This document shows positions 50-17,868 of a stretch of 44,625 nucleotides of DNA, one piece after another. Within the stretch, counting starts at the first letter, position 1; each line of letters starts with the position of its first letter. The position numbers and the translations under genes are program-made. This stretch comes from a virus. The DNA lies in UHGV virus genome UHGV-0129366; one strand, written 5' to 3'. The notes under the pieces are model-generated. The model was not told the origin of the DNA, made no database searches, and saw only the letters and a program-made list of their open reading frames with translations.

Positions 50-2782
50 TCAGGTTTTTCTTATTAACCATGCTTCCAGAGCGGCAACACTGCGTGTAAT
101 TTCTTCGTGTGGAAGGGGGGCAGATAATGGCTGCTGCTCCAGTTGTGCGCATTGCTGGCTGGCGCTACGCATTCCCAGACTCGAGCAACTGCTTTTTAGC
201 TGATGTGCGGCACGCTTTATTTTCTCGTTATCCTGACTGGCGCGGGCAATGTCGATTTCATCGAGAAGCGGCAGGGCATGTTGTTTAAATAATATCAGCC
301 ATTCGTGGATCTTCTCCGCCCCCATTAAATGAGCATCTTCATTGAGTTGCGATACATCCAGCGGTTGATCATTTTTGACTTGCAGTTGGAGATAGTGCGC
401 CAGTAATTGACCGAGCACTTCACGCGGCACCGGTTTAGGGATAATCCCGCGAAATAGCGAACTGGTACGCTGGCGCAGTGTTTCGTCGATGACATGAGCG
501 CTAAAGCCAATCAAAACCAGCGACGGATATTGCTGTGCCAGTTGCCGGGCAAGCGTAATGCCGTCGATATCCGGCAGATCAAAATCCACCAGTGCGACAG
601 CAAATGGTTCACTATTTTGCAGTGTCTCTAAAGCCTGCGCGGCATTTCCTACGGCAACGACCTGCGCCCCACTGCTGTTCAACATCTCAACGGTAATCCG
701 CTGGGTTAGCGGGTTATCTTCAATTAACAGCAAACGTAAACCGTCCAGACGCACCGCCTGATTGACTGTTTTTGGCACGGGTGCAGTGGCAATACGTAAC
801 GGCAAGCGTAAACAAAAACAGCTTCCAACCTCCGGCGTGCTGGTGGCGCTCAGTTCGCCACCCATCGCCTGGGCCAGACGGCTACTGATAGTCAGCCCCA
901 GCCCGGTGCCGCCGCGTTTGCCGCTAACCTGAACAAATGGCTGGAAGATTTCAGCCAGTTTCGCGGGATCAATACCGCAGCCGCTGTCTTCCACTTCGAC
1001 CAGCCATTGTTCGCCATCAGTGCGACTACGCAGAATAATGTGCCCTTCGTCGGTGAAACGCAGGGCGTTGCTCAACAGGTTGGTAATGACCTGACGAATA
1101 CGCCGCGGATCGCCCATTAACGCAGTCGGTACATCGTCGGCAATTTCTGTTGCCAGGCGAATCGGGCGACCTTTCACCCTTCCGCTCATTAATTGCAGGG
1201 TACTTTCCAGCAGCGGGCGCGGTTCAAAGGGTTCATCGCTGACCGAAACATTCTTGCCGCCTGCTTCGATAGCCGAATAATCGAGAATATCGTTGAGGAT
1301 GGTCAGCAACGATTCACCAGAGTCGGTAATCGCCCGCAAATCATCGCGCTGGGCGTTAAGTGCGGGGTTATCTGCCAGCAGTTGCGCGGTGCCGAGAATA
1401 CCGTACAGCGGTGTGCGGATCTCATGGCTCATCGCCGCCAGAAACGCCGATTTTGCCTGGCTGGCTTTTTCTGCTTCCGCCCGTGCCTGTCGGTGTTCTA
1501 TCACCAGTTCCTGCAATTCAGCTGTACGCGCTTTGACCTGCGCCGCCAGCTGTTCGCGGTGGCGATTCAGTGCATGAACACTGCTGCGAAACGCATCCAT
1601 CAGCCGCCCGATGGTATCCAGTTCCCGTACGCCAGCGGTTTCCGGGAAAGGGGAGTCGATATCACCATCCAGCAAGCGTTGCAGCGCCTGCGTTTGTTCT
1701 GCAAGAGGGCGCGTGACTGAGCGATAAACCACGCGCCAGAGGATCAGAATCAGTGCGCAAAGAGAAACTAATCCCAGCAATAACAGGCTGTATTGCCCGC
1801 GTGCACTGGCTTTTTCCAGATGTGCCAGCCCGTGCTGATTACGCAGCTCAATGGTGTCGACCAGCTGACTGACTTCGCTACTAAACTGCGCGAATTGGGC
1901 GATGTTATTTTGGGCGAGAGTTTGCAGGTGATTGCTGATTTCACTGTCCTGCTGATACAGCGCCAGCAAATCGCTATATTGGCTAACGGTAGTTAACGTT
2001 GTTGCTACCTGAGTACGAACACCCGGATCTTCAATGCGTATTTGCCGACGTTGCAGAATTTTCACCGCATTATTGAGCTGCTTTTCCAGCGTTGGCGCAT
2101 TTTTCTGGATCTGTTCCAGCCCCAGATTCATCACCATTTGCTGCACCCGCAGGGCGCTAAGGCGCAGTTCATTCATCTGGTTAACATACTCAAGATCGAT
2201 ATCAATCAGCCGATCGAGTGCACTTTCTGCGGCCTGACGCTGATGTTGTTCGATCAAATCGTAAATCCCGGCCTGGGTCGCTCCGGCGGAGGTTGCCGCA
2301 TTATTCGCCTGACCTTGCGCCAGGCGTGCGATTTCATCGGCGGCGGCGACTATCTGCTGACTGAGTTGCTGTTGTTGCTGGCGAAGTTGCAAACGCTGCC
2401 CCACCAGTTCCCCTTGCTGACGTAACGAACGGGAGATCTCCTGCTCCTGTTGTTCAATAGCGGTGGTGTCAAAACCTTGTTCCCGTAACGCTTGCAGCAA
2501 CGCATTAATCTTCAGGCTTTGTGCGGTGAGCATTCGCCCCTGCGCCTGCCACATCTTTTCGTTATCGGCACTGGTCAGGTTCTGCGCGGCGAAAAGTTCC
2601 CAGGCGCTGGCTTCGCTCAACTGGCGCGCCATATTCATGGTAGGAATCAATGCCTGAGTGTTGTCTTTTTCCACCTGGCTGATAAAGCGCAGGTTGTACC
2701 ATCCCACCAGGGTACTGGTCAGGGTTAACAGCGCCATCAGGGCAAAGCCCATCCAGAGTCTTCGGGTCAGGGTTAAATTCAC
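50..2782 (-). CDS. torS: TMAO-responsive hybrid sensor histidine kinase TorS
   Basis: 910-aa ORF beginning [21 protein letters not shown]; HisKA H-box (SHEIRTPL), HATPase motifs (GTGLGLTIS), receiver domain (LLLIEDNP) and C-terminal HPt; recalled as E. coli TorS. Confidence 0.93.
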
Positions 2783-2876
2783 GGTCGGTGCACTTTAGGT
2801 GAATAAGTTGTATATTTAAAATCTCTTTGACTATCAATGAATTAATATAAGCAGGTCATTATTAGTCAAAATAAAA
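2783..2876. other. attL: Candidate attL (core plus P-prime arm) between torS start and int 3' end
   Basis: AT-rich 94-bp junction; segment agtcaaaataaaatcatttgtcgatttcaattttgtccc resembles the lambda P-prime arm next to int; flanking core-side sequence differs from lambda. Confidence 0.45.
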
Positions 2877-3950
2877 TCATTTGTCGATTTCAATTTTGTC
2901 CCATTCCCGTCCACGGCTATCCCTATACCGCGCAGCCATTGAATCTGATTTATGCCCGAGAAGACGTTGAGCAAACTTATCGCCAATCTGGTTCCGGTAT
3001 AGCCTTGCTGACAGGCTACGCAGTTCATGGAATGTTGGCGGGTTTCCATCAAATGAGAGTCCAGATGCATTTCTCGCCTTTGTAAAATACTTTGATACTG
3101 TTTTCGGGGAAAGCGGATCGTGATGCTTTGATGCGATTATAGTTTCACTGCTGCTGGCCTCCCTGCATTTCTGTAGTGTATCAGCCAATGAGATATTGAG
3201 CGCGTCAATCGTTAGCATTAGCGGAATGGCGAGTTTAGCCCCTGTTTTACTCTGTTCAATGTGAAGATGGTTGTCGTTTATGTCTGACCATTTCATTCTG
3301 CATAAATCGCCCACTCTCTGCCCTGTAACGACAGCCAAATCCATCGCCAGCCTTAGCCAGATAGGGAGAGGTTCGGCTGCATGGTAAATCTCGACATACT
3401 CATTAGCTGTCAGCCTTGAGCGCCTTACTTCTGACTTTGCTGTACGGGTTGCTGTTACCGGATTCGTTGCCACATGCCCCTCGGCTATTGCTTCACGAAA
3501 AACGTCAACAAGGGTTGACCTGATTAATTTTGCGGAAGCTGCTTTACCTTCTGCTACGTAGGTGTTTAGCATTGCTGCCACATCTTTCGTTGATATGTCA
3601 GTGAGCGGTTTGTCCGGCAATTTTCTTCGGATTGCCCTGATTTTGCTGGCGTAGTCGAGTAGAGTTTTCGGCCTGATCCCCCTTTCGGTGAGGATTCTTT
3701 CATATCGGTCAAGCCACACATGAAGAGTGATTGCGTCACCGCCTTTAATTCTGTCTATCAGTGATTTGCGTCCGCTGTCTGAGAGTAACTCAATATTGGC
3801 CTGTATTGCTTCAGTGATTGCTATCCTCCTGTCTCGGCCTAATCCAAACTCTTTACCCGTCCTTGGGTCCCTGTAGCAGTAATATCCATTGTTTCTTATA
3901 TAAAGGTTAGGGGGTAAATCCCGGCGCTCATGACTTCGCCTTCTTCCCAT
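2877..3950 (-). CDS. int: Tyrosine integrase, lambda/HK022 Int family
   Basis: 357 aa, N-terminus MGRRRSHERRDLPPNLYIRNNGYYCYRDPRTGKEFGLGRDRRIAITEAIQAN and C-terminus near-collinear with lambda Int; catalytic R-K-H-R-H-Y context (HELRSLSARLY, LLGHKSD). Confidence 0.95.
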   Translation of the reverse strand: MGRRRSHERRDLPPNLYIRNNGYYCYRDPRTGKEFGLGRDRRIAITEAIQANIELLSDSGRKSLIDRIKGGDAITLHVWLDRYERILTERGIRPKTLLDYASKIRAIRRKLPDKPLTDISTKDVAAMLNTYVAEGKAASAKLIRSTLVDVFREAIAEGHVATNPVTATRTAKSEVRRSRLTANEYVEIYHAAEPLPIWLRLAMDLAVVTGQRVGDLCRMKWSDINDNHLHIEQSKTGAKLAIPLMLTIDALNISLADTLQKCREASSSETIIASKHHDPLSPKTVSKYFTKARNASGLSFDGNPPTFHELRSLSARLYRNQIGDKFAQRLLGHKSDSMAARYRDSRGREWDKIEIDK

Positions 3951-4146
3951 TTCTGATCCTCTTCAAAAGGCTACCTGTTACTGGTCGATTTAAGTCAACC
4001 TTTACCGCTGATTCGTGGAACAAATACTCTCTTCCATCCTTAACCGGAGGAGGGAATATCCTGCACTCGCGTACCCATCGACGAACTGTTTCAAGGCTTC
4101 TTGGACGTCGCTGGCGTGCGTTCCACTCCTGGAGTGTCAAGTACAT
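3928..4146 (-). CDS. xis: Excisionase Xis
   Basis: 72 aa, MYLTLQEWNARQRRPRSLETVRRWVRECRIFPPPVKDGREYLF..., one substitution from lambda Xis as recalled; overlaps int start as in lambda. Confidence 0.93.
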   Translation of the reverse strand: MYLTLQEWNARQRRPRSLETVRRWVRECRIFPPPVKDGREYLFHESAVKVDLNRPVTGSLLKRIRNGKKAKS

Positions 4147-4173
4147 CGCAAAGTCTCCGCAATTACACGCAAG

Positions 4174-4193
4174 AAAAAACCGCCATCAGGCGG
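4174..4193 (-). terminator. Putative rho-independent terminator upstream of xis
   Basis: Minus-strand hairpin ccgcc/tgat/ggcgg followed by a T-run (plus-strand A-run 4174-4179). Confidence 0.4.
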
Positions 4194-4353
4194 CTTGGTG
4201 TTCTTTCAGTTCTTCAATTCGAATATTGGTTACGTCTGCATGTGCTATCTGCGCCCACAGCATCCAGTGGTCATAGCAGTCATTGATGTTCTCTGCTTCG
4301 ATAACTCTGTTGAATGGTTCTCCATTCCATTCACCTGTGACTCGGAAGTGCAT
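4186..4353 (-). CDS. Small hypothetical protein (55 aa)
   Basis: ORF MHFRVTGEWNGEPFNRV... with GGAG Shine-Dalgarno 8 nt upstream; below the ORF-track cutoff; ends in the terminator hairpin. Confidence 0.3.
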   Translation of the reverse strand: MHFRVTGEWNGEPFNRVIEAENINDCYDHWMLWAQIAHADVTNIRIEELKEHQAA

Positions 4354-4425
4354 TTATCATCTCCATAAAACAAAACTCGCCGTAGCGAGTTCAGATAAAA
4401 GAAATCCCCGCGAGTGCGAGGATTG

Positions 4426-4710
4426 TTATTCATTGCCGATATTCACCTTTATCGCGAATACCTTTACCGGTTTATCGCCGAAGTGCGGATGTGTGATTGT
4501 CTTGATTTCATACCCTTCATACGGGACGTCTATTCTGCGACTGGAGTCGTCGCGCTTCGGATATCCCTTTGTGATAATCAGGCGGTCATATTCCCGGAAC
4601 ATAATTCGCTTATTCCAGTAGTCATTACACAGGCGATACTCTTCCGTTTTCTCTCCGCGAATCATGGCATCGAAGTATTCACCTTTGACGGCAAGTTGAA
4701 GGTTAGCCAC
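4426..4710 (-). CDS. ASCH/DUF3850-like (PUA-fold) protein
   Basis: 94 aa; motif KGEYFDAMIRGEKTEEYRLCNDY...REYDRLII matches the remembered DUF3850/ASCH pattern. Confidence 0.45.
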   Translation of the reverse strand: MANLQLAVKGEYFDAMIRGEKTEEYRLCNDYWNKRIMFREYDRLIITKGYPKRDDSSRRIDVPYEGYEIKTITHPHFGDKPVKVFAIKVNIGNE

Positions 4711-5326
4711 GGTTAACCTCCTGCGGCGGTTCTGGTAGCGGCATCCAGAACAAGGCGTTCCCTAACCACGATAAAGTGCCGTCGCTCAACTCCACGTATT
4801 CCCCTTGCACCTGTCCTGCCATATACTCACCGTGCTTTGAATAAATTAAAATCCAATCATCTTGAGCGGGCATTCGCTCACTACAGCTTATCCAACCACC
4901 CGGAGTTACCGGAGAGTTGCCGCGTTCTTTAATGTGCAAGCGAGGCTCACCATCTTTTGGTTCAGGCCACTGACGCTCCATGTTGATCTTCAATTTATCT
5001 TCCATAGCAGCGGTAATTTCAGCATCGCTGATGCCAGCACGGCGTTGTGCATCCCACAACAGAAACTGCATATCAGCCCACTCGCTAAGATCGTCTGGTT
5101 CGGCTGCGGCTTCCAGTGCCTCTTTTGAGAGGTGTTTCAGTGGACCAATGGGGCCAACGCAGCCAAATGTGGAGTCAGACCATTTGGCATGCTCGTGGCG
5201 AATCTGTTCGCGTTCCAGTGATGCCAGTGCAATTCGTGCCAGTTCCATTTGTTCGCCACGGGTAAGCCCGTTTTCAAGCGGGTATTTAATGAACAATTCA
5301 ATACGTTCTTTAGTAATAGTGGTCAT
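4703..5326 (-). CDS. MazG-like dNTP pyrophosphohydrolase N-domain with DUF551-like C-terminus
   Basis: 207 aa; acidic EexxE...EWAD motif block (LSKEALEAAAEPDDLSEWADMQFLL) typical of MazG-type NTP-PPases; Trp-rich C-terminal region. Confidence 0.45.
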   Translation of the reverse strand: MTTITKERIELFIKYPLENGLTRGEQMELARIALASLEREQIRHEHAKWSDSTFGCVGPIGPLKHLSKEALEAAAEPDDLSEWADMQFLLWDAQRRAGISDAEITAAMEDKLKINMERQWPEPKDGEPRLHIKERGNSPVTPGGWISCSERMPAQDDWILIYSKHGEYMAGQVQGEYVELSDGTLSWLGNALFWMPLPEPPQEVNRG

Positions 5327-5336
5327 TTGTTAGTCC

Positions 5337-6092
5337 TTAAACTGCTAGTTGCAATTGCATTTCAAAGCGGTCGCGTTGTTCACAATACGCAAGAGAACCA
5401 GGGCTATTGTGTGCCTCAATCCGTTCTACCATTAATGCTGCGCGTGTCTCTTTACTTGCAGGTGCATAAGCCCCAGACCAGGCTTTATCAATACCGATGT
5501 TTCGAGCGACGTTCGTACTATCTGCGCTGGCTAAGGGTAATTTTGTGAATATCAGCGGATTTAACATGCGCAATCCATGTAGTTTCGTAACCGGCTGACC
5601 ATGCCCATCAACAATGTGACGAATCAGGTCTTTCATTCTGGCTACCGCAAGAGTTGGGCGCTTTACGTCATAGTCGCCACAACTACCGATAGCCACTCGC
5701 GGAAACTCATTGCACAAATGAATAAATCGCTCGTCACTTTCATTCATGTGCCACACTGGAACGCCAGCTAGTTTTCCGTGAGGCCACTCATTCAGAAGCG
5801 CATCATTTTCCTCCTCTCCGCCATCAATAATATCCGGGATAATGGCAAAATCGAATCCTGGGTGATTCTTCCAGCGAGCAACAAACTCGTAGTAATCGCT
5901 CCAGTCGATTTTGTTTTTGCCAGCTGCTTTCCAGGCGGTGAATGCACCGTTGTCCAGCGCGAACGACTGACAGTATTCAGCCGCGAGATTGATCTGGCCT
6001 GAATGCGCAAAACTGATAAACGCATGTCGCCCTTTCCATGCTCTCATTGCGCACGTATCAGGAGTAATAGGCCCACCGTGGTAGTGAATCAT
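5337..6092 (-). CDS. tRNA-guanine transglycosylase-fold protein, DpdA-like candidate DNA transglycosylase
   Basis: Collinear motif matches to bacterial Tgt: LDNGAF vs LTDSGGFQ, AIIPDII vs MIFDEC, ADSTNVARNIG vs FDCVMPTRNARNG; no C-terminal zinc-binding CxCxxC...H region; start set at ATG 6092 with AAGGAG SD. Confidence 0.5.
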   Translation of the reverse strand: MIHYHGGPITPDTCAMRAWKGRHAFISFAHSGQINLAAEYCQSFALDNGAFTAWKAAGKNKIDWSDYYEFVARWKNHPGFDFAIIPDIIDGGEEENDALLNEWPHGKLAGVPVWHMNESDERFIHLCNEFPRVAIGSCGDYDVKRPTLAVARMKDLIRHIVDGHGQPVTKLHGLRMLNPLIFTKLPLASADSTNVARNIGIDKAWSGAYAPASKETRAALMVERIEAHNSPGSLAYCEQRDRFEMQLQLAV

Positions 6093-6093
6093 C

Positions 6094-6738
6094 TCACTCT
6101 CCTTTGATGCGAATGCCAGCGGCGCGGGAATCATTCCATCGCTTTACTTCTTCACGAATTACGTCAATGCATTCTTTCGAATCCATTAGGTAATCTTCAT
6201 CAAAAAGCCTTTCCTGTTCGTTTTCTATCGCAACAATGATTGCTTCAACTAACTTTTGTGCCTGAGAACCACTTTCTAACTCTGCAATGCGCTTCTCTGC
6301 GGCCTCTGCCCTGCATTGTTCCCGTTGGAACATTTTGTGGGTGCGGTCGAGCGCCTCAAGTCTGGCTGCTGATGTTTTCTCTTCTGCTTCAAGCTCAACG
6401 CGCAGCTTCCCTACCGTTAGCGCAATATCCTCGTTCTCCTTGTCGCGGGATTTTATGTATTGCTGGTTTCTTTCCCGTTCATCCAGTAGTGCCAGCGCAA
6501 CATTTGGATTAAAGGCAGCAATAAATTCAGCGTTTGCGTAAGCCTGAGCATCTGTTTCAACCAGGCAGTTAACATGACATTCTGCAATCACGCCACCGGG
6601 TTCTCCTTTCCATTTTTGACAAACAAAAACTCCTGTTAAATTGCCGTGCTGGTTAACAGATGTATGCCCTACGATGTAGCTTCCTTTAGTTGCTTTCTCT
6701 GCCTTTTCACGCAGTGCCTGATAGTTAATCTCGCTCAC
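6094..6738 (-). CDS. Ead/Ea22-like early protein
   Basis: 214 aa; N-terminus [19 protein letters not shown]...AEFIAAFNPNVALALLDERE typical of the Ea22-like family, followed by coiled-coil. Confidence 0.55.
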   Translation of the reverse strand: MSEINYQALREKAEKATKGSYIVGHTSVNQHGNLTGVFVCQKWKGEPGGVIAECHVNCLVETDAQAYANAEFIAAFNPNVALALLDERERNQQYIKSRDKENEDIALTVGKLRVELEAEEKTSAARLEALDRTHKMFQREQCRAEAAEKRIAELESGSQAQKLVEAIIVAIENEQERLFDEDYLMDSKECIDVIREEVKRWNDSRAAGIRIKGE

Positions 6739-6980
6739 TCTTCATCCTCCAAGTCGGCAACGGCGTCCATCACATCAGAACCGCGAATAACCTCAAAAGC
6801 ACGGCAGGCCATTTGAAATACCAGTTGCTCTTGCGGGTGAGGAGACTCCCAATATTTGAAGCCTGGGCGATGCGTGTACCCCATCATTGAATAAAAATCA
6901 CCAGCAAGCTTAATCGCGGCATCGACAAGCTCTCTGTTAGTCATTCTTTTTCCGCTCACTGGTTGCCTCCTTTGCGCCAC
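6735..6980 (-). CDS. Hypothetical early protein
   Basis: 81-aa ORF in the early-left operon, ATGA-coupled to the downstream gene. Confidence 0.4.
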
Positions 6981-7156
6981 ATCGCATTCAGATATTTGTT
7001 TTGATTCACTGACGGAAAAGAATTTCTCTTAAGCAATTCCTCTCTCGATGGCATTGGCTTTACGCGTTGGCGAATAATCATTTCTGCCGGAAGAATGCCG
7101 GGATTGTATGCAAGTCCTCTCATGGTAAATTCCTCAGTCATTACTGATAGCGCCAT
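6956..7156 (-). CDS. Hypothetical early protein
   Basis: 66-aa ORF in operon context; no recognisable motif. Confidence 0.3.
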
Positions 7157-7430
7157 AGCGTGAGCGGTAATTACGCAGGCGCGGGTCGATATATTCAGGG
7201 AATTTGTCTATTGTCGCTTTTCGCAACGGTCTCATTGCTGTTTCGTTTGTTCGGTCCTTCTCCTGTTTTAGCGCGAGTTGTATATCGCGTCGGTACATCC
7301 GTTCTGCTTTTGTTTCTGGTGTCAGAGCAAGAAACGCGTCGAAATTGTTTTTGATATTCTCCAGCACCTCCGCCTTGGAGCTACCGGAGCAGTTGCGCGG
7401 GTCATCCGCACCATACAGAGGCGCTGGCAT
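7134..7430 (-). CDS. Hypothetical early protein
   Basis: 98-aa ORF in operon context. Confidence 0.4.
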
Positions 7431-7453
7431 AATGGGAGCCTTATTTTCAGTAA

Positions 7454-8041
7454 TCAGAAAGCAGGGTAATCGTTCTGGCTGTAACCATAATCATCTGCAT
7501 GATTCTGGCTTACGTTTTTAGAGCGATTGTCTTTATCTTTGAGGCTGGCAACCATGTCGGCGATAGTTTCTGGTTGCTTGCCTTCTGCCTTTTCTTTAAG
7601 GGTTTGACCTGTTTGTGCAATAAACGGGATGCGTATTTCCATCTGGTAGCTGTCTGCGCCAGTCTTTTTGTTTGTGGTTAATACTTTCTGGAGCACTAAC
7701 CCGATTTTCTTTCCATGAAATTCAGGTGCAACAAATTTACTGGCGGAAACCATATGCTGCGTTAATTGTCCAATCCCGGCACACCCCATCATGGCGTGAA
7801 CGACATTTGCGCCAAATTTGTTTTCCGTTCCGTCATTTTTCTGAACACAAACGCTAAGATACTGGATTTTACGTCCGTCGTCGGATTCTCCAGAAAACTC
7901 AATAAATTTGGCTCCTTTTTCTGATTTCTTTAGTTCTGCTTCAGTAATGGTAATGATATGGGCGCCAGTTTCGTTAATAAAACCACCTTGCCCTGCGGTC
8001 AGTGCTGCTTCTTCGTTATAAGTAAAAATCACGTTGCTCAT
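7454..8041 (-). CDS. Phage SSB-like ssDNA-binding protein (Sak4 partner)
   Basis: 195 aa directly downstream of and overlapping the Sak4-like gene; acidic C-terminal tail ...DDYGYSQNDYPAF resembling SSB tails. Confidence 0.5.
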   Translation of the reverse strand: MSNVIFTYNEEAALTAGQGGFINETGAHIITITEAELKKSEKGAKFIEFSGESDDGRKIQYLSVCVQKNDGTENKFGANVVHAMMGCAGIGQLTQHMVSASKFVAPEFHGKKIGLVLQKVLTTNKKTGADSYQMEIRIPFIAQTGQTLKEKAEGKQPETIADMVASLKDKDNRSKNVSQNHADDYGYSQNDYPAF

Positions 8042-8718
8042 GCGGCGTTTTCCTTAATTTGATGAACATTATTGATGCCGTAGTAATCACAAACAGTGGC
8101 ATCGACGAAAGAGAGATCGTTATCAATCTCATTGGAATCAAACATTCCTATTGGGGATTTAACAGTGTCTGCACCGTTGTTTTTCGTGGTGAAAAAGAAC
8201 TGGTCATCGCGGGTAAGGGTGCGAAGAACTATAGTAAACATGCCTTCGACAGTGATTTTCTCGTCCAGCATTTTGCCGATAGTCTTCATTTTCACACGCC
8301 CCATAGGGGTTTCTTCGGTGTGTGCGAGAAAATAGACTCTCAGGTCATCAGGTGCATCCTGTGCAGCCTTAATCACCTCCCATGCGTGGCGGCCTATCTC
8401 AGTGAATTTATCAAACGATTTTTCTTCTGAGCGGCGCATAAACTCATTGCTCATCACATACTGGAAGTCATCAACAATAACGATTCTTTTCCCGTATTCG
8501 TGAGCACGCTTAATTACGGCAACTATTACGTCCCATTTGTCAGTGGTAACTACGGTTCCTTTTTTTGCTCTGGCATCCCATGCCAGCCAGTCTTTTGATT
8601 TAAATGGAAGCGGCTTGCCTATTGGTTTTATAAGTATTGCTTCCTCTGGATTGATATTTCTCATGCTGGTTGATTTTCCGGTGCCAGATTCACCGAGTAT
8701 TAATGTCGCAGTTCCCAT
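8038..8718 (-). CDS. Sak4-like RecA-fold single-strand annealing ATPase
   Basis: 226 aa; Walker A GESGTGKS near N-terminus and Walker B-like IVIVDD; position equivalent to lambda bet/exo. Confidence 0.7.
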   Translation of the reverse strand: MGTATLILGESGTGKSTSMRNINPEEAILIKPIGKPLPFKSKDWLAWDARAKKGTVVTTDKWDVIVAVIKRAHEYGKRIVIVDDFQYVMSNEFMRRSEEKSFDKFTEIGRHAWEVIKAAQDAPDDLRVYFLAHTEETPMGRVKMKTIGKMLDEKITVEGMFTIVLRTLTRDDQFFFTTKNNGADTVKSPIGMFDSNEIDNDLSFVDATVCDYYGINNVHQIKENAA

Positions 8719-8726
8719 AATTTGCC

Positions 8727-8927
8727 TCAGAATGGTAATTCGGATGGGGAGGAAAGAAACTCACGCTCATTCATGCGCTCTCTTTGTGCCTGCCATAAGC
8801 AAAGTTGTTTCTTTGATTTATCTCCCGCTTTACGCCAGTAACGAGCCTCAGCAATGTGATATTCTCTTTTTAATCGACTTAACTCTGGAGTTTTCGCCAG
8901 TTCTACCGGAATCATTTTGACCTCCAT
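8727..8927 (-). CDS. Hypothetical protein (gam-equivalent position)
   Basis: 66-aa ORF between kil and the Sak4 gene; no similarity to lambda Gam noticed. Confidence 0.35.
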   Translation of the reverse strand: MEVKMIPVELAKTPELSRLKREYHIAEARYWRKAGDKSKKQLCLWQAQRERMNEREFLSSPSELPF

Positions 8928-9025
8928 TTTCTGTAGGCTTCGACGGCCTCACGAAACATCTTTTCATCGCCAATAAAAGCGGCGATAGTGAATTTAGTCT
9001 GGATAGCCATAAGTGTTTTATCCAT
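8912..9025 (-). CDS. kil: Kil-like host cell division inhibitor
   Basis: MDKTLMAIQTKFTIAAFIGDEKMFREAVEAYRKW resembles lambda Kil as recalled; sits immediately downstream of cIII as in lambda. Confidence 0.55.
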   Translation of the reverse strand: MDKTLMAIQTKFTIAAFIGDEKMFREAVEAYRKWRSK

Positions 9026-9158
9026 TCTTTGGGACTCCTGGCTGATTAAGTATGTCGATAAGGCGTTTCCATCCGTCACGTAATTTACGGGTGATTCGTT
9101 CAAGTAAAGATTCGGAAGGGCAGCCAGCAACAGGCCACCCTGCAATGGCATATTGCAT
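9018..9158 (-). CDS. cIII: CIII, FtsH inhibitor
   Basis: MQYAIAGWPVAGCPSESLLERITRKLRDGWKRLIDILNQPGVPKNG matches lambda CIII; AAGGAG SD upstream. Confidence 0.85.
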   Translation of the reverse strand: MQYAIAGWPVAGCPSESLLERITRKLRDGWKRLIDILNQPGVPKNG

Positions 9159-9379
9159 GGTGTGCTCCTTATTTATACATAACGAAAAACGCCTCGAGTG
9201 AAGCGTTATTGGTATGCATATAAAAAGGCCCTCACACTGGAGGGCAAAGAAGATTTCCAATAATCAGAACAAGTCGGCTCCTGTTTGGTTACGAGCGACA
9301 TTGCTCCGTGTATTCACTCGTTGGAATGAATACACAGTGCAGTGTTTATTCTGTTGTTTATGCCAAAAATAAAGGACGA

Positions 9380-10003
9380 TTATGCGACCTCGGAAGGAAG
9401 TCCAATCATCTTATTCAAATCTTCTACCCGTAAAGCAGGAAGTGCTGTACTTGCTTTATCTGCTTCTTTTGGTAGCAACTCTTTGCTTTCAGGCCAAACT
9501 TCAATAAGTCGCTTAACTGTTGTGACTGAGTTCAAAGCAGCCCATACATTTGATTCGATATCCTTTTTCTTGGCTTCAAGTTTTTGTTGCAATGCGCAGA
9601 TTTCATCAAACCTTTTTGTTATTTCGTGTTCTGCGCTAAACATGCATTTATCTTTGGTCGGAGTAGGGAGCAATATATCTTCGCCGTTGCCGTCTTTCCC
9701 ATATGAATACCAGCCAACCCTTCTGCCAGATACAGTCAGATAAATTGAAGTTGAACGGGCATCGCATGAGTAAAATGAACATCCCAGCTTTTCAAGTTCT
9801 TCGCTTATAGCCATTAACTTGGATGATAACTGATCCACTTCCTCAGTTTTCTTTTTACCGCCAAACGCAACAACTCTGGCGTCAAGTGCAAGCTGGTTCT
9901 TTAACTTTGTTACTTCTTCAAGCTCAGTGAAAACCCCAGATTTAATTAAAGCGTTACGAGCGATTTTCTCTTTCATTCTCGTAGTTAAGCGGATTGATGA
10001 CAT
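9380..10003 (-). CDS. Hypothetical early protein (about 207 aa)
   Basis: Start moved to internal ATG 10003 (MSSIRLTT...) preceded by GAGG; lies between N and cIII where lambda carries ral/ea10. Confidence 0.45.
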   Translation of the reverse strand: MSSIRLTTRMKEKIARNALIKSGVFTELEEVTKLKNQLALDARVVAFGGKKKTEEVDQLSSKLMAISEELEKLGCSFYSCDARSTSIYLTVSGRRVGWYSYGKDGNGEDILLPTPTKDKCMFSAEHEITKRFDEICALQQKLEAKKKDIESNVWAALNSVTTVKRLIEVWPESKELLPKEADKASTALPALRVEDLNKMIGLPSEVA

Positions 10004-10064
10004 ATTAATTCCTCTCAAATAAGTGGTTTGCTGCCTAATTTCATTTTCTGGCGACCAACACAAG

Positions 10065-10337
10065 TCATCTTGCTGTCAGTTGTTTGGATTTCCGGTAGCC
10101 TGCCGCGTAAAGAGCTACATTTGGAAGACAAGTTGAGCCTTCATATTTTCTGGTCAACGTTGTCAGTGTTATTACTTCTGCTCTCATTGCTGGTTTGCGC
10201 TTGCATTGCAAGACCACTCGAGAGGGGGTTGGTCTGTGTAGCTTGTCGGAGCTAATCGCCTCCTGACTTTGCAGGTTTGCGCGACGAGCTCTACGACGAG
10301 AAGCTGAGGTGCCTTTAAATTCTGTTTTTCTGGACAT
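10065..10337 (-). CDS. N: Antiterminator N, P22 gene-24-like
   Basis: Arg-rich motif TSASRRRARRA near N-terminus; C-terminus LPNVALYAAGYRKSKQLTAR resembles P22 gp24; strong GGGAGGA SD; first gene after pL/nutL. Confidence 0.8.
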   Translation of the reverse strand: MSRKTEFKGTSASRRRARRANLQSQEAISSDKLHRPTPSRVVLQCKRKPAMRAEVITLTTLTRKYEGSTCLPNVALYAAGYRKSKQLTAR

Positions 10338-10362
10338 AGATTCCTCCCGAATAAACTTTGGT

Positions 10363-10410
10363 GATGCAATCTCGAAGCTCCTCCTGAGACGGTTGCTTCG
10401 GCATTGCATC
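10363..10410 (-). promoter_or_regulatory. Long imperfect inverted repeat in the N leader (candidate RNase III processing hairpin)
   Basis: 16-nt arms gatgcaatgccgaagc / gcttcgagattgcatc (2 mismatches) around a 16-nt loop, between nutL and the N SD. Confidence 0.35.
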
Positions 10411-10435
10411 CCACAGCTTATGTGGTTGGGTGATC

Positions 10436-10481
10436 TGGCTTTTCAGCCACGTAGTCGAGAGTCGACGTTGTTTAAAGAGCC
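10436..10481 (-). promoter_or_regulatory. nutL: Candidate nutL (boxA plus boxB)
   Basis: boxA-like GGCTCTTTAA and a boxB-like hairpin UGGCU-GAAA-AGCCA 22 nt downstream; same spacing and loop as the nutR candidate. Confidence 0.45.
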
Positions 10482-10526
10482 TGCCAGTCTGTTCCATTTA
10501 GCTTCCAGCGTCCTGCTGATGTGTTT

Positions 10527-10589
10527 AGTATCACCGCCGGAGGTATTTTCGTCAACACCGCTAGAGATAAAATATTACCGCAAATGGTT
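10527..10589 (-). promoter_or_regulatory. OL1-OL3 operators with pL promoter
   Basis: tatcaccgccggaggta, caacaccgctagagata and tattaccgcaaatggtt are close to lambda OL1/2/3; minus strand TTGACG-17nt-GATACT promoter overlaps OL2/OL1. Confidence 0.75.
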
Positions 10590-10736
10590 ATGTGCATGTT
10601 TTTACTATTGATTTATTTTTTTAAAGTTTTGCAGAGCTAGTCTGGATGTGTAGGAGCTGAATTGCGCAATGTGATAAGTGTGATTTATATTTATTCAATA
10701 AATACAATTCGTTAGGTGTGTTTTTGACGGGCTGAT

Positions 10737-10766
10737 GGTAAAAGAAAACCCGGCGCGGAGGCCGGG
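10737..10766 (-). terminator. Rho-independent terminator ending the cI operon
   Basis: GC hairpin cccggc/gcggag/gccggg followed on the minus strand by TTTTCTTTT, directly after the second rexAB-slot gene. Confidence 0.6.
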
Positions 10767-10781
10767 CTGAAGGGGCTCATT

Positions 10782-11711
10782 CTAATCGATTGATTTAATA
10801 TCCCATTGAGGTCGAGAAACCAGAGTGTATCTGGGCTTGCCCTTACCAACAGTTTTTTTCAGGAACGTGGCTGTTGCAACGCTTCCTAAGTGCTTGTTTA
10901 TAATATCTGGGTCATCTACAGCTTTGTCAATGCTAGCGGTTCTGATATCAGTGTTACCTAAAACTATAAATTCACATTGGCGCTTGTTAGGAAGAGTTCC
11001 CAAAAATATAACGTTCTCAATAATTTTTTCCTGCTGAATGTTATCATTGCTGAGATGTTGATATACAGCTTCAAGCTGTTTTGGCTCTCTAAAAACGATG
11101 CTAAAACCTTGGCTTTTAAGTGTAAAAACTGTTTTATTTTCATGCAGATAATGAATGAATGCTCTGATTTTATCTAAGGCCCGAGAGTCTAAGTTTTCTA
11201 TAGCATCAGACAATTCTTCATCATCATTATCCAAGCTTGCCTGAAATATTTTTCTGGCCTTATTAATAGCTTTTGCTACTGGGGTTTCTTCATCGAATTC
11301 AAGAGGAGCATCAGGTCTAAACTCTTCAAGTACGAATCCGAAAGAACCACGGGCTGACGCGGTAATCATGAGATGATTATTTTCTATGTTTGGTATCTTG
11401 CCTGATGCAGGAAGTGGGCCATTGAAAGAGGTTGCCAAGTAAGCTATTGCATCATTAAAACAAGATATAGCTTTTGTTCCAAATACTGCTGAAATGCCAT
11501 GCGTGCCAACTACTGTTGGGCCTCTAAAAGTTAACACAGCATGCGTAGGTTCATGTTCTCGAACGTCAGCTTGTGAAATTAATCGCTCAACTTTCTCCAG
11601 ACGGTCTTCTAAGCTTTTTCGGCTAATAGAATGACTTGTTGGCATATTTTTTAATAGATTACTTATTTGCTCGCGCTCACTGAGAGCGAAAACATAATCA
11701 TTACGATTCAT
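10782..11711 (-). CDS. Uncharacterised protein, second gene of the rexAB-slot operon (309 aa)
   Basis: Long ORF, start overlaps the upstream gene stop by 4 bp (ATGA); no family recognised; contains an R-x6-H stretch (RAFIHYLH) of unknown significance. Confidence 0.6.
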   Translation of the reverse strand: MNRNDYVFALSEREQISNLLKNMPTSHSISRKSLEDRLEKVERLISQADVREHEPTHAVLTFRGPTVVGTHGISAVFGTKAISCFNDAIAYLATSFNGPLPASGKIPNIENNHLMITASARGSFGFVLEEFRPDAPLEFDEETPVAKAINKARKIFQASLDNDDEELSDAIENLDSRALDKIRAFIHYLHENKTVFTLKSQGFSIVFREPKQLEAVYQHLSNDNIQQEKIIENVIFLGTLPNKRQCEFIVLGNTDIRTASIDKAVDDPDIINKHLGSVATATFLKKTVGKGKPRYTLVSRPQWDIKSID

Positions 11712-12286
11712 TGTTTGACCCCCTCAGTAGTAGCCGAATTAAGTATAGTCATTGCCACAACATCAAGTTGTGGGTTTAACGGGATTTGGATAAATCCCTT
11801 CCACGACAGATCGCGTCTATGTGCCCACATACTGTACCAATATACAGTCATTTCAACAAGCTCATGACTTGGTAGATTAAGTTCTTGGAAGTAGGAATCT
11901 ACGAAAAACTCCTTCTTAACAAAATCATGATCAAATAGCTCTGGCTTTCTACCGATTACGATTGCATCATTATCGCCATTACTGAATTGAAAAAAGGTCA
12001 CAACATCGACATCATTCGGTGGCCTTTTTTCAATAAGTTCAATATGTTCTGTGAAGCTTCCATCTACCCACTGAAAACCTTCAACTAGCCCTGCTTGAGT
12101 GAGTGAAACACGAAAGTTAAGAAAACCCTTAAGGATTTTAATCCTTGCAGGGCTAAGCGAAAAAGTACTAACAAAGCGTACTATATCCATTTTGTATGGG
12201 GAACGAGTATGGCTTGTAGGATCAGCCTCGTCTATTGGGGGGATTAACCCCATCTCATTCCATAGAGAGACAGTTGGTATACTCAA
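11708..12286 (-). CDS. Uncharacterised protein, first gene of the rexAB-slot operon (192 aa)
   Basis: Begins 86 bp downstream of cI on the same strand; segment VDGSFTEHIELIEKRPPNDVDVV loosely resembles a GS...DxD nucleotidyltransferase-fold signature. Confidence 0.6.
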   Translation of the reverse strand: MSIPTVSLWNEMGLIPPIDEADPTSHTRSPYKMDIVRFVSTFSLSPARIKILKGFLNFRVSLTQAGLVEGFQWVDGSFTEHIELIEKRPPNDVDVVTFFQFSNGDNDAIVIGRKPELFDHDFVKKEFFVDSYFQELNLPSHELVEMTVYWYSMWAHRRDLSWKGFIQIPLNPQLDVVAMTILNSATTEGVKQ

Positions 12287-12372
12287 TGCTTAACCTTTAT
12301 AACGAACTGAATATTCGGCAAAATATTGTTTTTAGGTATTGGCTGCTGTGCTTGTCGGACGTTTATTTCGTG

Positions 12373-13089
<717 letters not shown>

Positions 13090-13096
13090 TTAAATC

Positions 13097-13162
13097 TATC
13101 ACCGCAGGGGATAAATATCTAACACCGCAGATGTTGACTATTTTACCTCTGGCGGTGATAAT
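13097..13162. promoter_or_regulatory. OR3-OR2-OR1 operators with PR and PRM
   Basis: OR3 tatcaccgcaggggata 13097-13113, OR2 taacaccgcagatgttg 13120-13136, OR1 tacctctggcggtgata 13144-13160; PR -35 ttgact 13134-13139 and -10 gataat 13157-13162. Confidence 0.9.
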
Positions 13163-13177
13163 GACTGTATGTACTAA

Positions 13178-13387
<210 letters not shown>

Positions 13388-13394
13388 GTAACCC

Positions 13395-13440
13395 CGCTCT
13401 TTGTAACAACGGACATTCGTCCTACGTCGCTGAAAAGCGA
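13395..13440 (+). promoter_or_regulatory. nutR: Candidate nutR (boxA plus boxB)
   Basis: boxA CGCTCTTTG 13395-13403; boxB hairpin UCGCU-GAAA-AGCGA 13427-13440. Confidence 0.5.
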
Positions 13441-13525
13441 GCCCCAAGATATCTGACCAACTCAGGCCATATGCGTTTCCACGCATACCAGTCAACTAAC
13501 TATTCACTATTGGAAATCTTAAGAA

Positions 13526-13825
13526 ATGGAAAGAACAAGTTACAGCAAACTATCACAGCGCGACGTTGATCGCGCAGAAACAGATTTACTCATCAACCTG
13601 TCAGCGATTACCCAGCGCGGTCTGGCAAAGATGATTGGCTGTCATGAATCGAAGATAAGCAGAACGGACTGGAGATTTATTGCTTCGGTCTTGTGTGCTT
13701 TCGGAATGGCATCAGACATCAGTCCGATTAGCAGGGCTTTTAAGTATGCGCTTGATGGACTCACCAATAAAAAACGCCCGGTGTGCAAGACCGAGCGTTC
13801 TGAACAAATCCAGATGGAATTTTAA
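13526..13825 (+). CDS. cII: CII-like transcriptional activator
   Basis: 99 aa; C-terminus TNKKRPVCKTERSEQIQMEF matches lambda CII C-terminus; N-terminal HTH region divergent. Confidence 0.75.
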   Translation: MERTSYSKLSQRDVDRAETDLLINLSAITQRGLAKMIGCHESKISRTDWRFIASVLCAFGMASDISPISRAFKYALDGLTNKKRPVCKTERSEQIQMEF

Positions 13826-13847
13826 CAACATCCAGCGAGGTAATTAT

Positions 13848-13991
13848 ATGCGAAAAACGCAGGAAAATAAACGCGTTAATCACCGAAAAGATGTGCTACG
13901 TGACCAGTTTTATCAGGGGGTTAATCCAGCAATAGCTGTGCCACTGAGAGAAATACTTAACAGGTACAAAACTTCGGAGAAGTCAAAATGA
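13848..13991 (+). CDS. Small basic hypothetical protein (47 aa)
   Basis: ATG with GCGAGG SD 7 nt upstream; stop overlaps the O-like start (ATGA). Confidence 0.3.
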   Translation: MRKTQENKRVNHRKDVLRDQFYQGVNPAIAVPLREILNRYKTSEKSK

Positions 13992-14809
13992 GCATGAATC
14001 TTATGGCTAAGGCCATGAATATAAAGGTTGGCAACCCACTGAGAAAACTGGTTCTGATTAAACTTGCCGATAACGCCAATGATAATGGCGAATGCTGGCC
14101 TTCATATCAACATGTCGCTGACCAGTGTGAGGTGAGCAGATCGACAGTAAAAAGTCACATTAGGGCACTGGAAGAGATGGGGCTTTTGAAAAGGGAATTC
14201 AGAAGAAAAGGAGAGCTTAACCAGTCAAACGTTTTTTATCTGACGCTGGATAATGCACAACAAATCCAGCCAGAATCAGGTGGGGCAGGAGCTGCCCGGG
14301 GTGGGGCAGGAGCTGCCCGGGGTGGGGCAGGAGCTGCCCTAGGGGGTGGGGCAGGAGCTGCCCTAGGGGGTGGGGCAGGAGCTGCCCCCAGAACCTATCA
14401 CTCTTTTGAACCAGTCAATGAACCTAAAAACATTATGTTCGAACATGTCCGAACAGAGTGTGAAAAAACTCCTGACCGTCACGAAGAAACCGACAAGGCA
14501 TTCGAGGAAATATTCTGGTGTGCAGGCATGCGGAAAGCCGGGAAGAAAAACGCAGCTTCAGCATTCAGAACACAGTTCAGGGAATGGCGTAAAACTACCA
14601 GGGGTACGGCAAGCGAGTTTGCCACGATGCTGGCAGAAGACATCGCATGCAGGAATGGTAAGCAGTTCGGATTCGACAGGTTGTTACCATCGAGCTACCT
14701 GAACGGTCAACGCTGGAACGACGAGAAGCCAGAAACTATTCAACCACAATCCAAACCATCATCCGCAATCACCGTATCGAAAACTGGCTACGTGTTTTTC
14801 GACAGGTGA
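13988..14809 (+). CDS. Replication initiator, lambda O-like, with internal origin iterons
   Basis: 273 aa; N-terminal DNA-binding region; Gly/Ala-rich linker encoded by tandem DNA repeats; position after cII and before the helicase. Confidence 0.65.
   Translation: MSMNLMAKAMNIKVGNPLRKLVLIKLADNANDNGECWPSYQHVADQCEVSRSTVKSHIRALEEMGLLKREFRRKGELNQSNVFYLTLDNAQQIQPESGGAGAARGGAGAARGGAGAALGGGAGAALGGGAGAAPRTYHSFEPVNEPKNIMFEHVRTECEKTPDRHEETDKAFEEIFWCAGMRKAGKKNAASAFRTQFREWRKTTRGTASEFATMLAEDIACRNGKQFGFDRLLPSSYLNGQRWNDEKPETIQPQSKPSSAITVSKTGYVFFDR
14279..14389 (+). repeat. Five tandem iterons (candidate ori) inside the O-like gene
   Basis: tggggcaggagctgccc at 14281, 14302, 14323, 14347 and 14371 (periods 21, 21, 24, 24); each copy is internally palindromic (gggcag/ctgccc). 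Confidence 0.6.
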
Positions 14810-14812
14810 ACC

Positions 14813-14920
14813 ATGAAATCAAAAATCAAATCGTTACTGGTCGCTGGTTATAACCACGGCTGGTTAAGTATTTCGTTTGTCGATTTCTGGTTTAAAAATC
14901 TCAATCTGAGGGAATCATGA
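14813..14920 (+). CDS. Possible small hydrophobic protein (35 aa)
   Basis: ORF MKSKIKSLLVAGYNHGWLSISFVDFWFKNLNLRES between O-like and primase genes; stop overlaps the primase start; weak SD. Confidence 0.2.
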   Translation: MKSKIKSLLVAGYNHGWLSISFVDFWFKNLNLRES

Positions 14921-16797
14921 CTCCAAGTGAACTTAGCTACCTGCTTTGGGCGCAGGTTGACAGGGTGGCTCCACACCTGTTGCCAAACGGCAAGAAAGAG
15001 GGGCATGAGTGGGTTGCCGGTAACGTCAACGGTGACAAGGGAAACAGCCTTAAGGTCAACCTTAGCGGCAAGAAAAAATGGGCTGATTTCGCTGAGGGAG
15101 ACGGCGGTGACATGCTTGATTTGTGGATGGCATGTCGTGGAATTAACCTGCATCAGGCTATGCAGGAAGCGAAAGCATTTCTCGGTATCAAGGATGACGA
15201 TCACCATTTCGATGCCAGACGTGAGAAGAAATTCTCCAGACCTGATCGCAAGAAAATCGCCCGCTACGTTACCAGAACAGAATCCCATCTTGAGTACCTG
15301 CAATCGCGTGGCATATCGCCAGAAATCGTAAAGCGCTACGAGGTTGTCAGCGGCAAGGTGTGGAATGGAGAGCGGGAACTGGATGCTCTGGTGATTCCGT
15401 ACAAACGCGATGGTGAGTTGTTGCAGGTCAAGCGAATCAGCACTGAGCGCCAGGACGGGAAGAAAGTCATTATGGCAGAAGGTGATTGCGAACCTTGCCT
15501 GTTCGGATGGCAGGCTCTGGACGCTGGCGTGAGGGCGGTTGTGCTTTGCGAAGGCGAAATTGATTGTATGAGCTATGCGCAATACGGCATCTCGGCGTTA
15601 TCCGTGCCGTTTGGTGGCGGGAAAGGCGCTAAGCAACAGTGGATTGAGTTTGAGTATCACAACCTCGACAGGTTTGAGGAAATATTCATCTCGATGGACG
15701 TTGATGATGTTGGTCGTGAAGCCGCAAGGGAAATCGCAAGCCGACTCGGTGAACATCGTTGCCGTCTTGTTACTCTGCCGTACAAAGACATCAACGAATG
15801 CCTGATGAACGGTGTTACCGAGGATGAAATCTGGCAGTACATCGGCACGGCATCCTACTTCGATCCTGAAGAACTCTACAGCGCGCGAGAGTTTTACCAG
15901 GACACTATCAACGCTTTCTACGGCAAGCAGCAGTATCTGTTTAATCCACCGTGGGAATCTCTGGCAGATAAATTCCAGTTCCGTGAGGCAGAGTTGACGC
16001 TGGTCAATGGTGTGAACGGTCACGGAAAAACGGAGGTTGTCGGGCATATGGCACTTGAGGCAATGCGTCAGGGTGTGAAGACGTGCATCGCGTCACTTGA
16101 GCTGAAGCCTGGTATTCTCCTTAAGCGCCTTACCCGTCAGGCGACGTGCTGCAAGATGCCGCCAGTGCTGGAAATTGACTCTGCATTTAAATTTTATGAC
16201 GAAAGACTTTGGGTGTTTGGCCTGACCGGAACGGCGAAAGCCGACAGGCTGATCGAAATATTCGACTACGCTCGCCGCCGATACGGGATCCAGTTATTCA
16301 TCATCGACAGCCTGATGAAATGTGGCATAGGCGACGATGACTATAACGGGCAGAAGGCGTTTGTTGACTCGATTTGCGACTTCAAAAACAAAACAAACTC
16401 CCACGTCATTCTCGTTACTCACTCGCGAAAAGGAGACAGCGAAGAAAAACCAACCGGGAAAATGGACGTAAAAGGCTCTGGAGCGATAACAGACCTGACA
16501 GACAATCTTTTCATCATCTGGCGTAACAAGGCTCGCGAGAGAGCGTTACAGAGAGTTCAGAGTGGTGAAAAGATGTCAGAGAAGGACGAACAGCTACTGG
16601 CATCTCCGGCATCTGTTTTGATGCTTGAAAAACAACGTAACGGCGAAGGTTGGGAAGGTGGTGTCCCGTTGTTCCTTGACGAGCAATCGCACCAGTTCCT
16701 GCAACTTGAATCAGGATCGCCATATAGCTACATCGCTAATATGCCGAAATCGGAATATGACGAGGCGTGGCGACAGGAAAACGTGACGGAGTATTAA
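14917..16797 (+). CDS. Bifunctional DNA primase/replicative helicase
   Basis: 626 aa; TOPRIM-like motifs (VVLCEGEIDCMSY, FISMDVDDVGREAA) followed by Walker A NGVNGHGKT and Walker B LFIIDSLMK. Confidence 0.8.
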   Translation: MTPSELSYLLWAQVDRVAPHLLPNGKKEGHEWVAGNVNGDKGNSLKVNLSGKKKWADFAEGDGGDMLDLWMACRGINLHQAMQEAKAFLGIKDDDHHFDARREKKFSRPDRKKIARYVTRTESHLEYLQSRGISPEIVKRYEVVSGKVWNGERELDALVIPYKRDGELLQVKRISTERQDGKKVIMAEGDCEPCLFGWQALDAGVRAVVLCEGEIDCMSYAQYGISALSVPFGGGKGAKQQWIEFEYHNLDRFEEIFISMDVDDVGREAAREIASRLGEHRCRLVTLPYKDINECLMNGVTEDEIWQYIGTASYFDPEELYSAREFYQDTINAFYGKQQYLFNPPWESLADKFQFREAELTLVNGVNGHGKTEVVGHMALEAMRQGVKTCIASLELKPGILLKRLTRQATCCKMPPVLEIDSAFKFYDERLWVFGLTGTAKADRLIEIFDYARRRYGIQLFIIDSLMKCGIGDDDYNGQKAFVDSICDFKNKTNSHVILVTHSRKGDSEEKPTGKMDVKGSGAITDLTDNLFIIWRNKARERALQRVQSGEKMSEKDEQLLASPASVLMLEKQRNGEGWEGGVPLFLDEQSHQFLQLESGSPYSYIANMPKSEYDEAWRQENVTEY

Positions 16798-16968
16798 ATG
16801 ACCATCTACATCACTGAGCTAATAACAGGCCTGCTGGTAATCGTAGGCCTTTTGTTTGTATGTAAGCAAAATCGATTTTAAGCCACATAAATAAGCCTGT
16901 GGCGACCTAATCATAATTAGGTGGCGAGATGCAAAAGTTAGTCAGAATGCGATTCAGGAGGTTTAAGG

Positions 16969-17415
16969 GTGAGGCAAATATACATGCTTCGCAACGAAGC
17001 AATCAGAAATAACGCCATAGACGCAATACTCTCACTTCCCATCGACGACAAGTCACCCCACGAAGTCCACGTTAAAGAACCCAAGCGTAGCAAAGCGCAG
17101 AATGACCGTATGTGGCCGATGCTGAACGATGTTTCGCGTCAGGTGCTATGGCATGGTCAACGGCTGGCGCCGGAAGACTGGAAAGACCTGTTCACTGCCC
17201 TGTGGCTTAAGACCAAAAAACTGGAGCAACGAAGTGTGCCTGGTATCGACGGTGGCGTTGTCATGCTTGGCGTGCGTACCAGCAAAATGCGAAAGGCCAG
17301 CATGACTGAGCTTATCGAAATCATGTTTTGGTTCGGCTCAGAGCGCAACGTGCGGTGGAGTGATGACTCCCGGCGAGAGTATGAATGGTCACAACGAACA
17401 GGGAGGGAGGCATGA
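16969..17415 (+). CDS. ninB: NinB (Orf-family recombination mediator)
   Basis: 148 aa with DQNRKLW-like [21 protein letters not shown] block resembling lambda NinB. Confidence 0.85.
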
Positions 17416-17606
17416 GGCGACAGCGACGAAGTATCACCGACATCATCTGCGAAAACTGCAAATACCTTCCAACGAAACGCTCCAGAAATAAACGCAAGCC
17501 AATCCCCAAAGAATCTGACGTAAAAACCTTCAATTACACGGCTCACCTGTGGGATATCCGGTGGCTAAGACATCGTGCGAGGAATACAAGGGGATTGACG
17601 CGATGA
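17412..17606 (+). CDS. ninE: NinE
   Basis: [53 protein letters not shown] matches lambda NinE; ATGA overlap with ninB. Confidence 0.85.
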
Positions 17607-17685
17607 TTTATCCGGGGCTATATTCCTCACACGCCAGCAAAATCTGGCGTCGGGATTGGCGTCCCGGATAGAAACCGCGACAGAG

Positions 17686-17708
17686 ACACGCCGCGAGCGT
17701 GTTTTTTA
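17686..17708 (+). terminator. Putative intrinsic terminator in the ninE-roi intergenic region
   Basis: Hairpin acacg/ccgcgag/cgtgt followed by TTTTTATT. Confidence 0.4.
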
Positions 17709-17868
17709 TTGTCGTATGCACGCGCACATCTGAATTATGGTGGGCTGTGTGGGGGCGGAGAGATCCGCGCCGGTCGGTTTCCCGGTTACGCCAACCCTGC
17801 ACAGTTCACCGCCAGACGATTGGCGTCGTCGGTGGTGAGTCATTTAGAAACCACCGGAGAGCGTCACC

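Follow-up and report, generated by a model that had tools for sequence, protein, structure and literature searches.

The closest described system is the attL of phage HK022 in lysogens of Escherichia coli K-12. The attB of HK022 is the 82-bp torS-torT intergenic region of K-12 (PMC6814406), and Carey et al. (2019, eLife 8:e49081; PMC6814406) found that HK022 lysogens of MG1655 have higher torS-lacZ expression and unchanged torT expression. Insertion of an omega terminator at attL abolishes torS transcription in these lysogens (PMC6814406). An HK022 fragment with end points -231 and +28 (counted from the torS ATG) yields a single sigma70 transcript in vitro, whose start maps inside the prophage at a position without a clear -10 or -35 (PMC6814406). 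TorS in excess over TorT dephosphorylates TorR, with the result that aerobic torCAD expression and its bet hedging are lost and anaerobic induction is kept; extra TorT brings back aerobic torCAD expression (PMC6814406). The phenotype of HK022 lysogens is also seen in the natural lysogen NRG 857C, and approximately 5% of complete E. coli genomes are occupied at torS-torT. The same authors caution that prophages at this site need not all behave alike (PMC6814406).

Here we analysed a 44,625-nt stretch of DNA (UHGV virus genome UHGV-0129366, hereafter the window), which carries torS, int, xis and a prophage body (Table 1). The first-pass annotation had put the torS start at 2782 and the 3′ end of int at 2877, with the phage junction inside the 94-bp gap between them, and these coordinates are borne out by the list of open reading frames and by our alignments. 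Taken as a whole, the locus is very probably the attL of a lambdoid/P22-like mosaic prophage that integrated in the HK022 manner, with loss of the native torS promoters and takeover of torS by a phage promoter. The initial finding is correct but already known, Carey et al. having described the same takeover, including a strain with an identical junction. The window is one more instance of a mechanism that has been published for HK022 and natural isolates, and it adds no new biology.

Table 1. Coordinates of torS, the attachment site and the prophage features in the window.
Feature	Position	Strand	Basis or remark
torS, TMAO sensor kinase	50..2782	-	mechanical ORF with the annotated GTG start; torS in the AR_0017 annotation
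P2torS remnant	2785..2797	-	TSS 2785 (A)/2786 (G), -10 TAAAGT 2797..2792; -35 and spacer now phage DNA
B core-type half-site GCACTTT	2790..2796	+	bacterial origin; same in K-12 attB and other unoccupied strains
Overlap (O) AGGTGAA, strand-exchange segment	2797..2803	+	common to attB, HK022 attP, window attL and AR_0017 attR
Prophage body	2804..44625	.	P22/HK620-like mosaic; AR_0017 annotation and alignment
P′ arm, 73 bp	2804..2876	+	colinear with the HK022 attP P′ arm
C′ half-site TAAGTTG	2804-2810	+	identical to lambda C′
Phage-derived segment corresponding to that in the HK022 -231..+28 fragment	2804..2983	-	construct limits from PMC6814406
Putative IHF H′-like site TATCAATGAATTA	2832-2844	+	aligns with lambda
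Putative P′1 arm-type Int site AGGTCATTAT	2853-2862	+	aligns with lambda P′ arm
Putative P′2 arm-type Int site TAGTCAAAAT	2863-2872	+	aligns with lambda P′ arm
Putative P′3 arm-type Int site AAAATCATTT	2873-2882	+	overlaps int stop codon
Candidate sigma70-like site TCGACA-18 nt-AATAAT, toward torS	2858..2887	-	one match on the right strand; spans int stop and arm sites
int, HK022-type tyrosine integrase, 357 aa	2877..3950	-	reads outward to torS; tyrosine recombinase in the AR_0017 annotation
xis, excisionase, 72 aa	3928..4146	-	ORF list; excisionase in the AR_0017 and HK022 annotations

The junction upstream of torS

On the plus strand, the gap between the torS start and the 3′ end of int (2783-2876) reads ggtcggt GCACTTT AGGTGAA TAAGTTG tatatttaaaatctctttgactatcaatgaattaatataagcaggtcattattagtcaaaataaaa and holds the phage/host junction. 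The unoccupied torS-torT region of K-12 reads ggtcggt GCACTTT AGGTGAA AAAGGTT gagtcgc..., on to the torT ATG, and the HK022 attP reads ...tttgtc ATCCTTT AGGTGAA TAAGTTG tatatttaaaatctcttt...; the respective cores are GCACTTTAGGTGAAAAAGGTT (K-12 attB) and ATCCTTTAGGTGAATAAGTTG (HK022 attP). Direct reading divides the 21-bp core of the window, 2790-2810 (GCACTTT-AGGTGAA-TAAGTTG), into a bacterial half-site, the 7-bp HK022 overlap and the phage C′/P′ arm, such that B and O match K-12 attB and O and C′ match HK022 attP. Because the window has the order B-O-C′, its junction is attL (BOP′), with AGGTGAA at 2797-2803 as the exchange segment, rather than the attR proposed in the first-pass annotation. 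On its sequence-defined features, all of which are present, the interval is a canonical HK022-type attL at the torS-torT attB, and annotations of the locus should label 2790-2810 in this way. Such a junction would have been formed by site-specific recombination of an HK022-type Int into attB(HK022), the 82-bp torS-torT interval. Measured from the two torS starts, the crossover is 15-21 bp upstream of the annotated GTG (2782) and 45-51 bp upstream of the ATG at 2752. The alignment of HK022 attP with the window starts at 2793, and a string search of the whole window found CTTTAGGTGAA once, at 2793-2803 (chance expectation 0.03).

The comparison with an unoccupied torS upstream region, which the first-pass annotation had suggested, defined this core: B and O are shared with K-12 and the match breaks at about 2810. 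Likewise, in four unoccupied strains that were aligned, colinearity on the torS side breaks at the core. Among 5426 complete E. coli genomes, 5415 matched a 901-bp probe spanning the junction, and almost all of these (>5000) align only to probe position 411, equivalent to window position 2810. The alignment runs on into int in 191/5426 genomes (3.5%), which have the same torS-int junction.

The base directly left of AGGTGAA (2796) is T/A polymorphic among phage attP alleles (the AR_0017 attR has ATCCTTA, and many STEC attL have GCACTTA). Unoccupied host attB alleles vary at this base too, an example being O157:H7 LSU61 (GCACTTAAGGTGAAAAATGTT). Since it varies in both attP and attB, this base is uninformative on the cut position. 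A non-canonical crossover, as might be read from CTTT at attL versus CTTA at attR in AR_0017, was rejected because the same T/A polymorphism occurs among unoccupied attB alleles.

The attR is absent from the window, where the core string occurs in one copy only. The window extends no further than the tailspike stop codon and so reaches neither attR nor torT. The far junction was instead examined in the sibling prophage of E. coli AR_0017, where it reads ...ttttgtc ATCCTTA AGGTGAA AAAGGTT gagtcgcaaagc..., 61 bp before the torT ATG; this is a proper attR (POB′). The attR beside torT in the window's own genome would be expected to read ATCCTT[T/A]AGGTGAAAAAGGTT. AR_0017 (HK620-like, phylogroup B2) is listed in Supplementary files 1 and 2 of Carey et al. 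(PMC6814406), and the AR_0017 attL row of their alignment is the window sequence, text extraction from the PDF doubling one base.

Integrase and arm sites

The first-pass annotation had described int and xis as lambda/HK022-like and had put the HK022 attB in this chromosomal neighbourhood. Both points can be made more precise: the genes are of the HK022 type, and the attB is exactly the 82-bp torS-torT intergenic region of K-12 (PMC6814406). Int shares 96% amino acid identity with HK022 Int and 75% with lambda Int, and the nucleotide match to HK022 across int and xis is 95%. Within the phage collection, 2793-4200 is matched at 95-98% by HK022, mEp235, mEp506, Gally, H19J and Stx1a-converting phages, whereas lambda-type phages match from 2852 onward only, at ~77%.

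The HK022 attL of K-12 lysogens and the window junction share the attB, the 21-bp B-O-C′ core, the 73-bp distance from int stop to junction and the order torS<-int<-xis. Their promoter-bearing fragments share 96% identity, although the P′ arm of the window carries six substitutions (67/73 positions identical) and its prophage body is a P22/HK620-like mosaic instead. Gally of the AIEC strain LF82 and the NRG 857C prophage are also P22-like (Lederbergvirus), with HK022-type int/att at the same torS-torT site, but have other mosaic content elsewhere; Gally has 2 differences in the P′ arm and 7/180 in the junction-proximal fragment. Stx1a-converting phages and H19J have the same int-att module, with 98% nucleotide identity across 2783-4200. 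These phages carry stx1, whereas the annotation of the near-identical AR_0017 prophage shows no toxin genes.

The first-pass observation that the int-proximal arm resembles the lambda P′ arm while the core differs also holds. The attL of lambda on the gal side (BOP′) has the same architecture, with an identical C′ TAAGTTG, an aligned H′-like IHF site and int reading outward. In a five-way alignment the block AGGTCATTAT-TAGTCAAAAT-AAAATCATTT (2853-2882) lines up with lambda P′1-P′3, so that C′ and three arm sites align. For the arm-site names and the IHF H′-like label we rely on established knowledge of lambda att, which we take to apply to these putative sites. In lambda, however, the overlap is TTTATAC rather than AGGTGAA, the B/C half-sites differ and attB lies between gal and bio rather than between torS and torT. 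A lambda att proper was rejected on the grounds of the overlap, the site and an Int that is only 75% identical.

Native promoters and the torS gene

The coordinates of the native promoters were taken from PMC6814406 and PMC13644379 and transferred onto K-12 and the window. For P2torS, the sequence displayed in PMC13644379 stops at the ATG, at +36 counted from the P2 TSS; the resulting position agrees with the published distance of no more than 3 bp between TSS2 and the torS GTG (PMC6814406). The P1torS TSS falls 42 bp upstream of the P2 TSS, 24 nt past the overlap on the torT side. The -10 region of P1torS is shared with PtorT, and the IscR operator lies in the same stretch (PMC13644379). The mapping puts P1torS A-11 and PtorT T-7 on one base pair and makes PtorT -36 TTG -34 coincide with the B′-boundary TTG, both in agreement with that 2026 paper (PMC13644379).

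Upstream of torS, all sequence beyond 2803 is phage DNA. The insertion was claimed to replace sequence upstream of torS, and it does so for everything beyond about 21 bp from the annotated start. About 42 kb now separates torS from P1torS, the IscR operator and an intact PtorT, all of which remain at attR beside torT. When mapped onto K-12 and the window, the torS promoter is not intact at the junction, P1torS being displaced and P2torS being without its -35. Integration severed torS from its main promoter, P1torS, and the shared IscR operator, and stripped the -35 from the minor promoter P2torS. The P1torS left at attR now faces inward, across the P arm and right end of the prophage in the direction of the tailspike; judging from the promoter mapping, any transcription from it would run antisense to the prophage or enter it from outside.

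The torS gene has 96.5% nucleotide identity to that of K-12. Carey et al. (2019, PMC6814406) showed with lacZ translational fusions that the only active torS start is an ATG 30 nt downstream of the GTG, which maps to 2752..2750 in the window. The start at 2782 given in the first-pass annotation is thus right as the GTG of the databases but is not the functional start. Annotations should place the start of torS at the ATG at 2752, and should not call the gene promoterless or inactivated.

Compared to K-12, torS has a 1-bp indel at ~60-66, in its 3′ end, and TorS ends ...EAWLIRKT here and ...EAWLHKKDLNAI in K-12, each followed by the stop. PGAP calls torS 'frameshifted' both in AR_0017 and in the prophage-free B2 strain APEC E16002. 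As the indel is present without a prophage, it is an allele of the lineage that has nothing to do with the prophage, and it is probably not inactivating. A prophage beside a dead torS was considered and rejected, since the indel alters the last few C-terminal residues only and occurs in a prophage-free B2 strain.

Probable takeover of torS by the prophage

The segment that corresponds to the phage part of the HK022 promoter fragment (2804-2983) is identical to HK022 at 172/180 positions (96%), to Gally at 173/180 and to AR_0017 at 180/180. Six of the 8 differences from HK022 lie within the P′ arm. By analogy, the position equivalent to the HK022-borne torS TSS could only be bounded to 2804-2983. 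A pattern scan predicted no terminator-like site between int and torS on the minus strand (2783-3500). Given the conserved fragment, the lack of a terminator in that scan and the HK022 precedent, torS in this strain is likely driven by a phage promoter. By homology to HK022, this would be a constitutive, outward-reading promoter in the P′ arm or the 3′ end of int. The sigma70-like candidate in this segment (TCGACA-18-AATAAT) is also present in HK022, but it may not be the published promoter because the TSS mapped by those authors has no clear -10 or -35.

If torS is transcribed in this way, TorS in excess over TorT would act as a TorR phosphatase, and aerobic torCAD expression and bet hedging would be lost with anaerobic induction kept. 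The first-pass annotation had suggested that torS expression could change; for HK022 such a change has been demonstrated, and it has been extended by inference to natural prophages at the site (PMC6814406). The identity of the junction, the type of integrase, the lost promoter elements and the conservation of the fragment are read from the window itself, and from these, together with HK022, we infer the expression phenotype of this strain. A prophage would here rewire a host two-component system through the position of its integration alone: very weak, IscR-repressed torS promoters would be swapped for a constitutive phage promoter, and aerobic bet hedging of TMAO respiration would be removed.

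Other outcomes of the same junction were weighed against takeover by a phage promoter. Loss of the native promoters might simply silence torS and produce a Tor-negative lysogen, as the displaced P1torS and IscR site and the replaced -35 of P2torS would suggest; this was the simplest first guess of Carey et al. (PMC6814406). HK022 lysogens, however, induce torCAD anaerobically and have higher, not lower, torS-lacZ expression, and the natural lysogen NRG 857C behaves like them (PMC6814406). As the promoter-bearing phage fragment is 96% conserved here, silencing is very improbable, and by analogy with HK022 lysogens, which raise torS transcription from a phage-borne promoter, the insertion would not silence torS. 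Alternatively, torS may be expressed mainly by read-through of int (from pI, or from pL on induction), with no dedicated promoter near attL. Read-through is favoured by the arrangement of the two genes, which share a strand and are separated by 94 bp in which no terminator is predicted. It is also favoured by lambda biology, since lambda-type phages that integrate lose the int terminator/sib, which spans att. Moreover, an omega insertion at attL cannot separate both sources in vivo (PMC6814406). Yet the -231..+28 fragment, in which int is represented by no more than its final ~105 bp, yields a discrete in vitro transcript with sigma70 holoenzyme, and int is repressed in lysogens (PMC6814406), making read-through as the main source quite unlikely.

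Integration could also have built a hybrid promoter across the junction, in which a phage TTTAAA (2820..2815) is separated by a 17-nt spacer from the host -10 TAAAGT (2797..2792) and the old P2 TSS at 2785 is used. Read directly from the sequence, both hexamers are 4/6 to consensus. We regard this arrangement as extremely improbable: in vitro, an HK022 lysogen template gave no TSS2 transcript and a single TSS inside the prophage (PMC6814406), and even a transcript from 2785 would depend on the ATG at 2752. A phage-borne promoter that acts as in HK022 is preferred over all of these. It is rather unlikely that the strength of the outward promoter, and with it the TorS:TorT ratio and the aerobic torCAD pattern, departs from that of HK022 lysogens on account of the six P′-arm substitutions or the different body of the prophage; tuning of the effect to something different by P′-arm variants is given a low probability. 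Were this so, the att-proximal arm would be a tunable module of host regulation across the ~3.5-5% of E. coli with prophages at this site.

The prophage body

The body carries lambdoid early genes together with P22-type portal, scaffold, capsid, ejection proteins and tailspike. E. coli AR_0017 (NZ_CP024886, phylogroup B2) shares 99.94% identity with the first 13.8 kb of the window; past that point the two are mosaic. In the right half, no complete E. coli genome exceeds 94% identity at 84% coverage, which marks the window as a mosaic relative of, and not the same as, the AR_0017 prophage.

Several genes of the body stand out. A two-gene cassette (10782-12286, minus strand) lies directly left of the gene for a LexA-family (cI-like) repressor (12373-13086). 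It encodes a 309-aa protein without a Pfam match and a DUF6932 protein that weakly matches PDC-M63A (2e-10), a candidate defence family of PADLOC. Judging from its location and gene content, the cassette may be a moron expressed in the lysogen or an anti-phage module. The early-left region encodes an Nmad5-family protein ('nucleotide modification associated domain 5', 6e-71; 9380-10063, minus strand). A gene for a ClpP-like protease (PF00574, 2e-11; 39335-39871, minus strand), an unusual passenger for a P22 immI-like region, sits beside Arc-family repressor genes, upstream of ant. Lastly, the nin region (17869-19343, plus strand) contains tandem antirepressor-type genes, ORF6N+P22_AR_C followed by Rha+KilAC/ANT. 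AR_0017 has only the second of these (KilAC) there, which is one of several mosaic differences between the two prophages.
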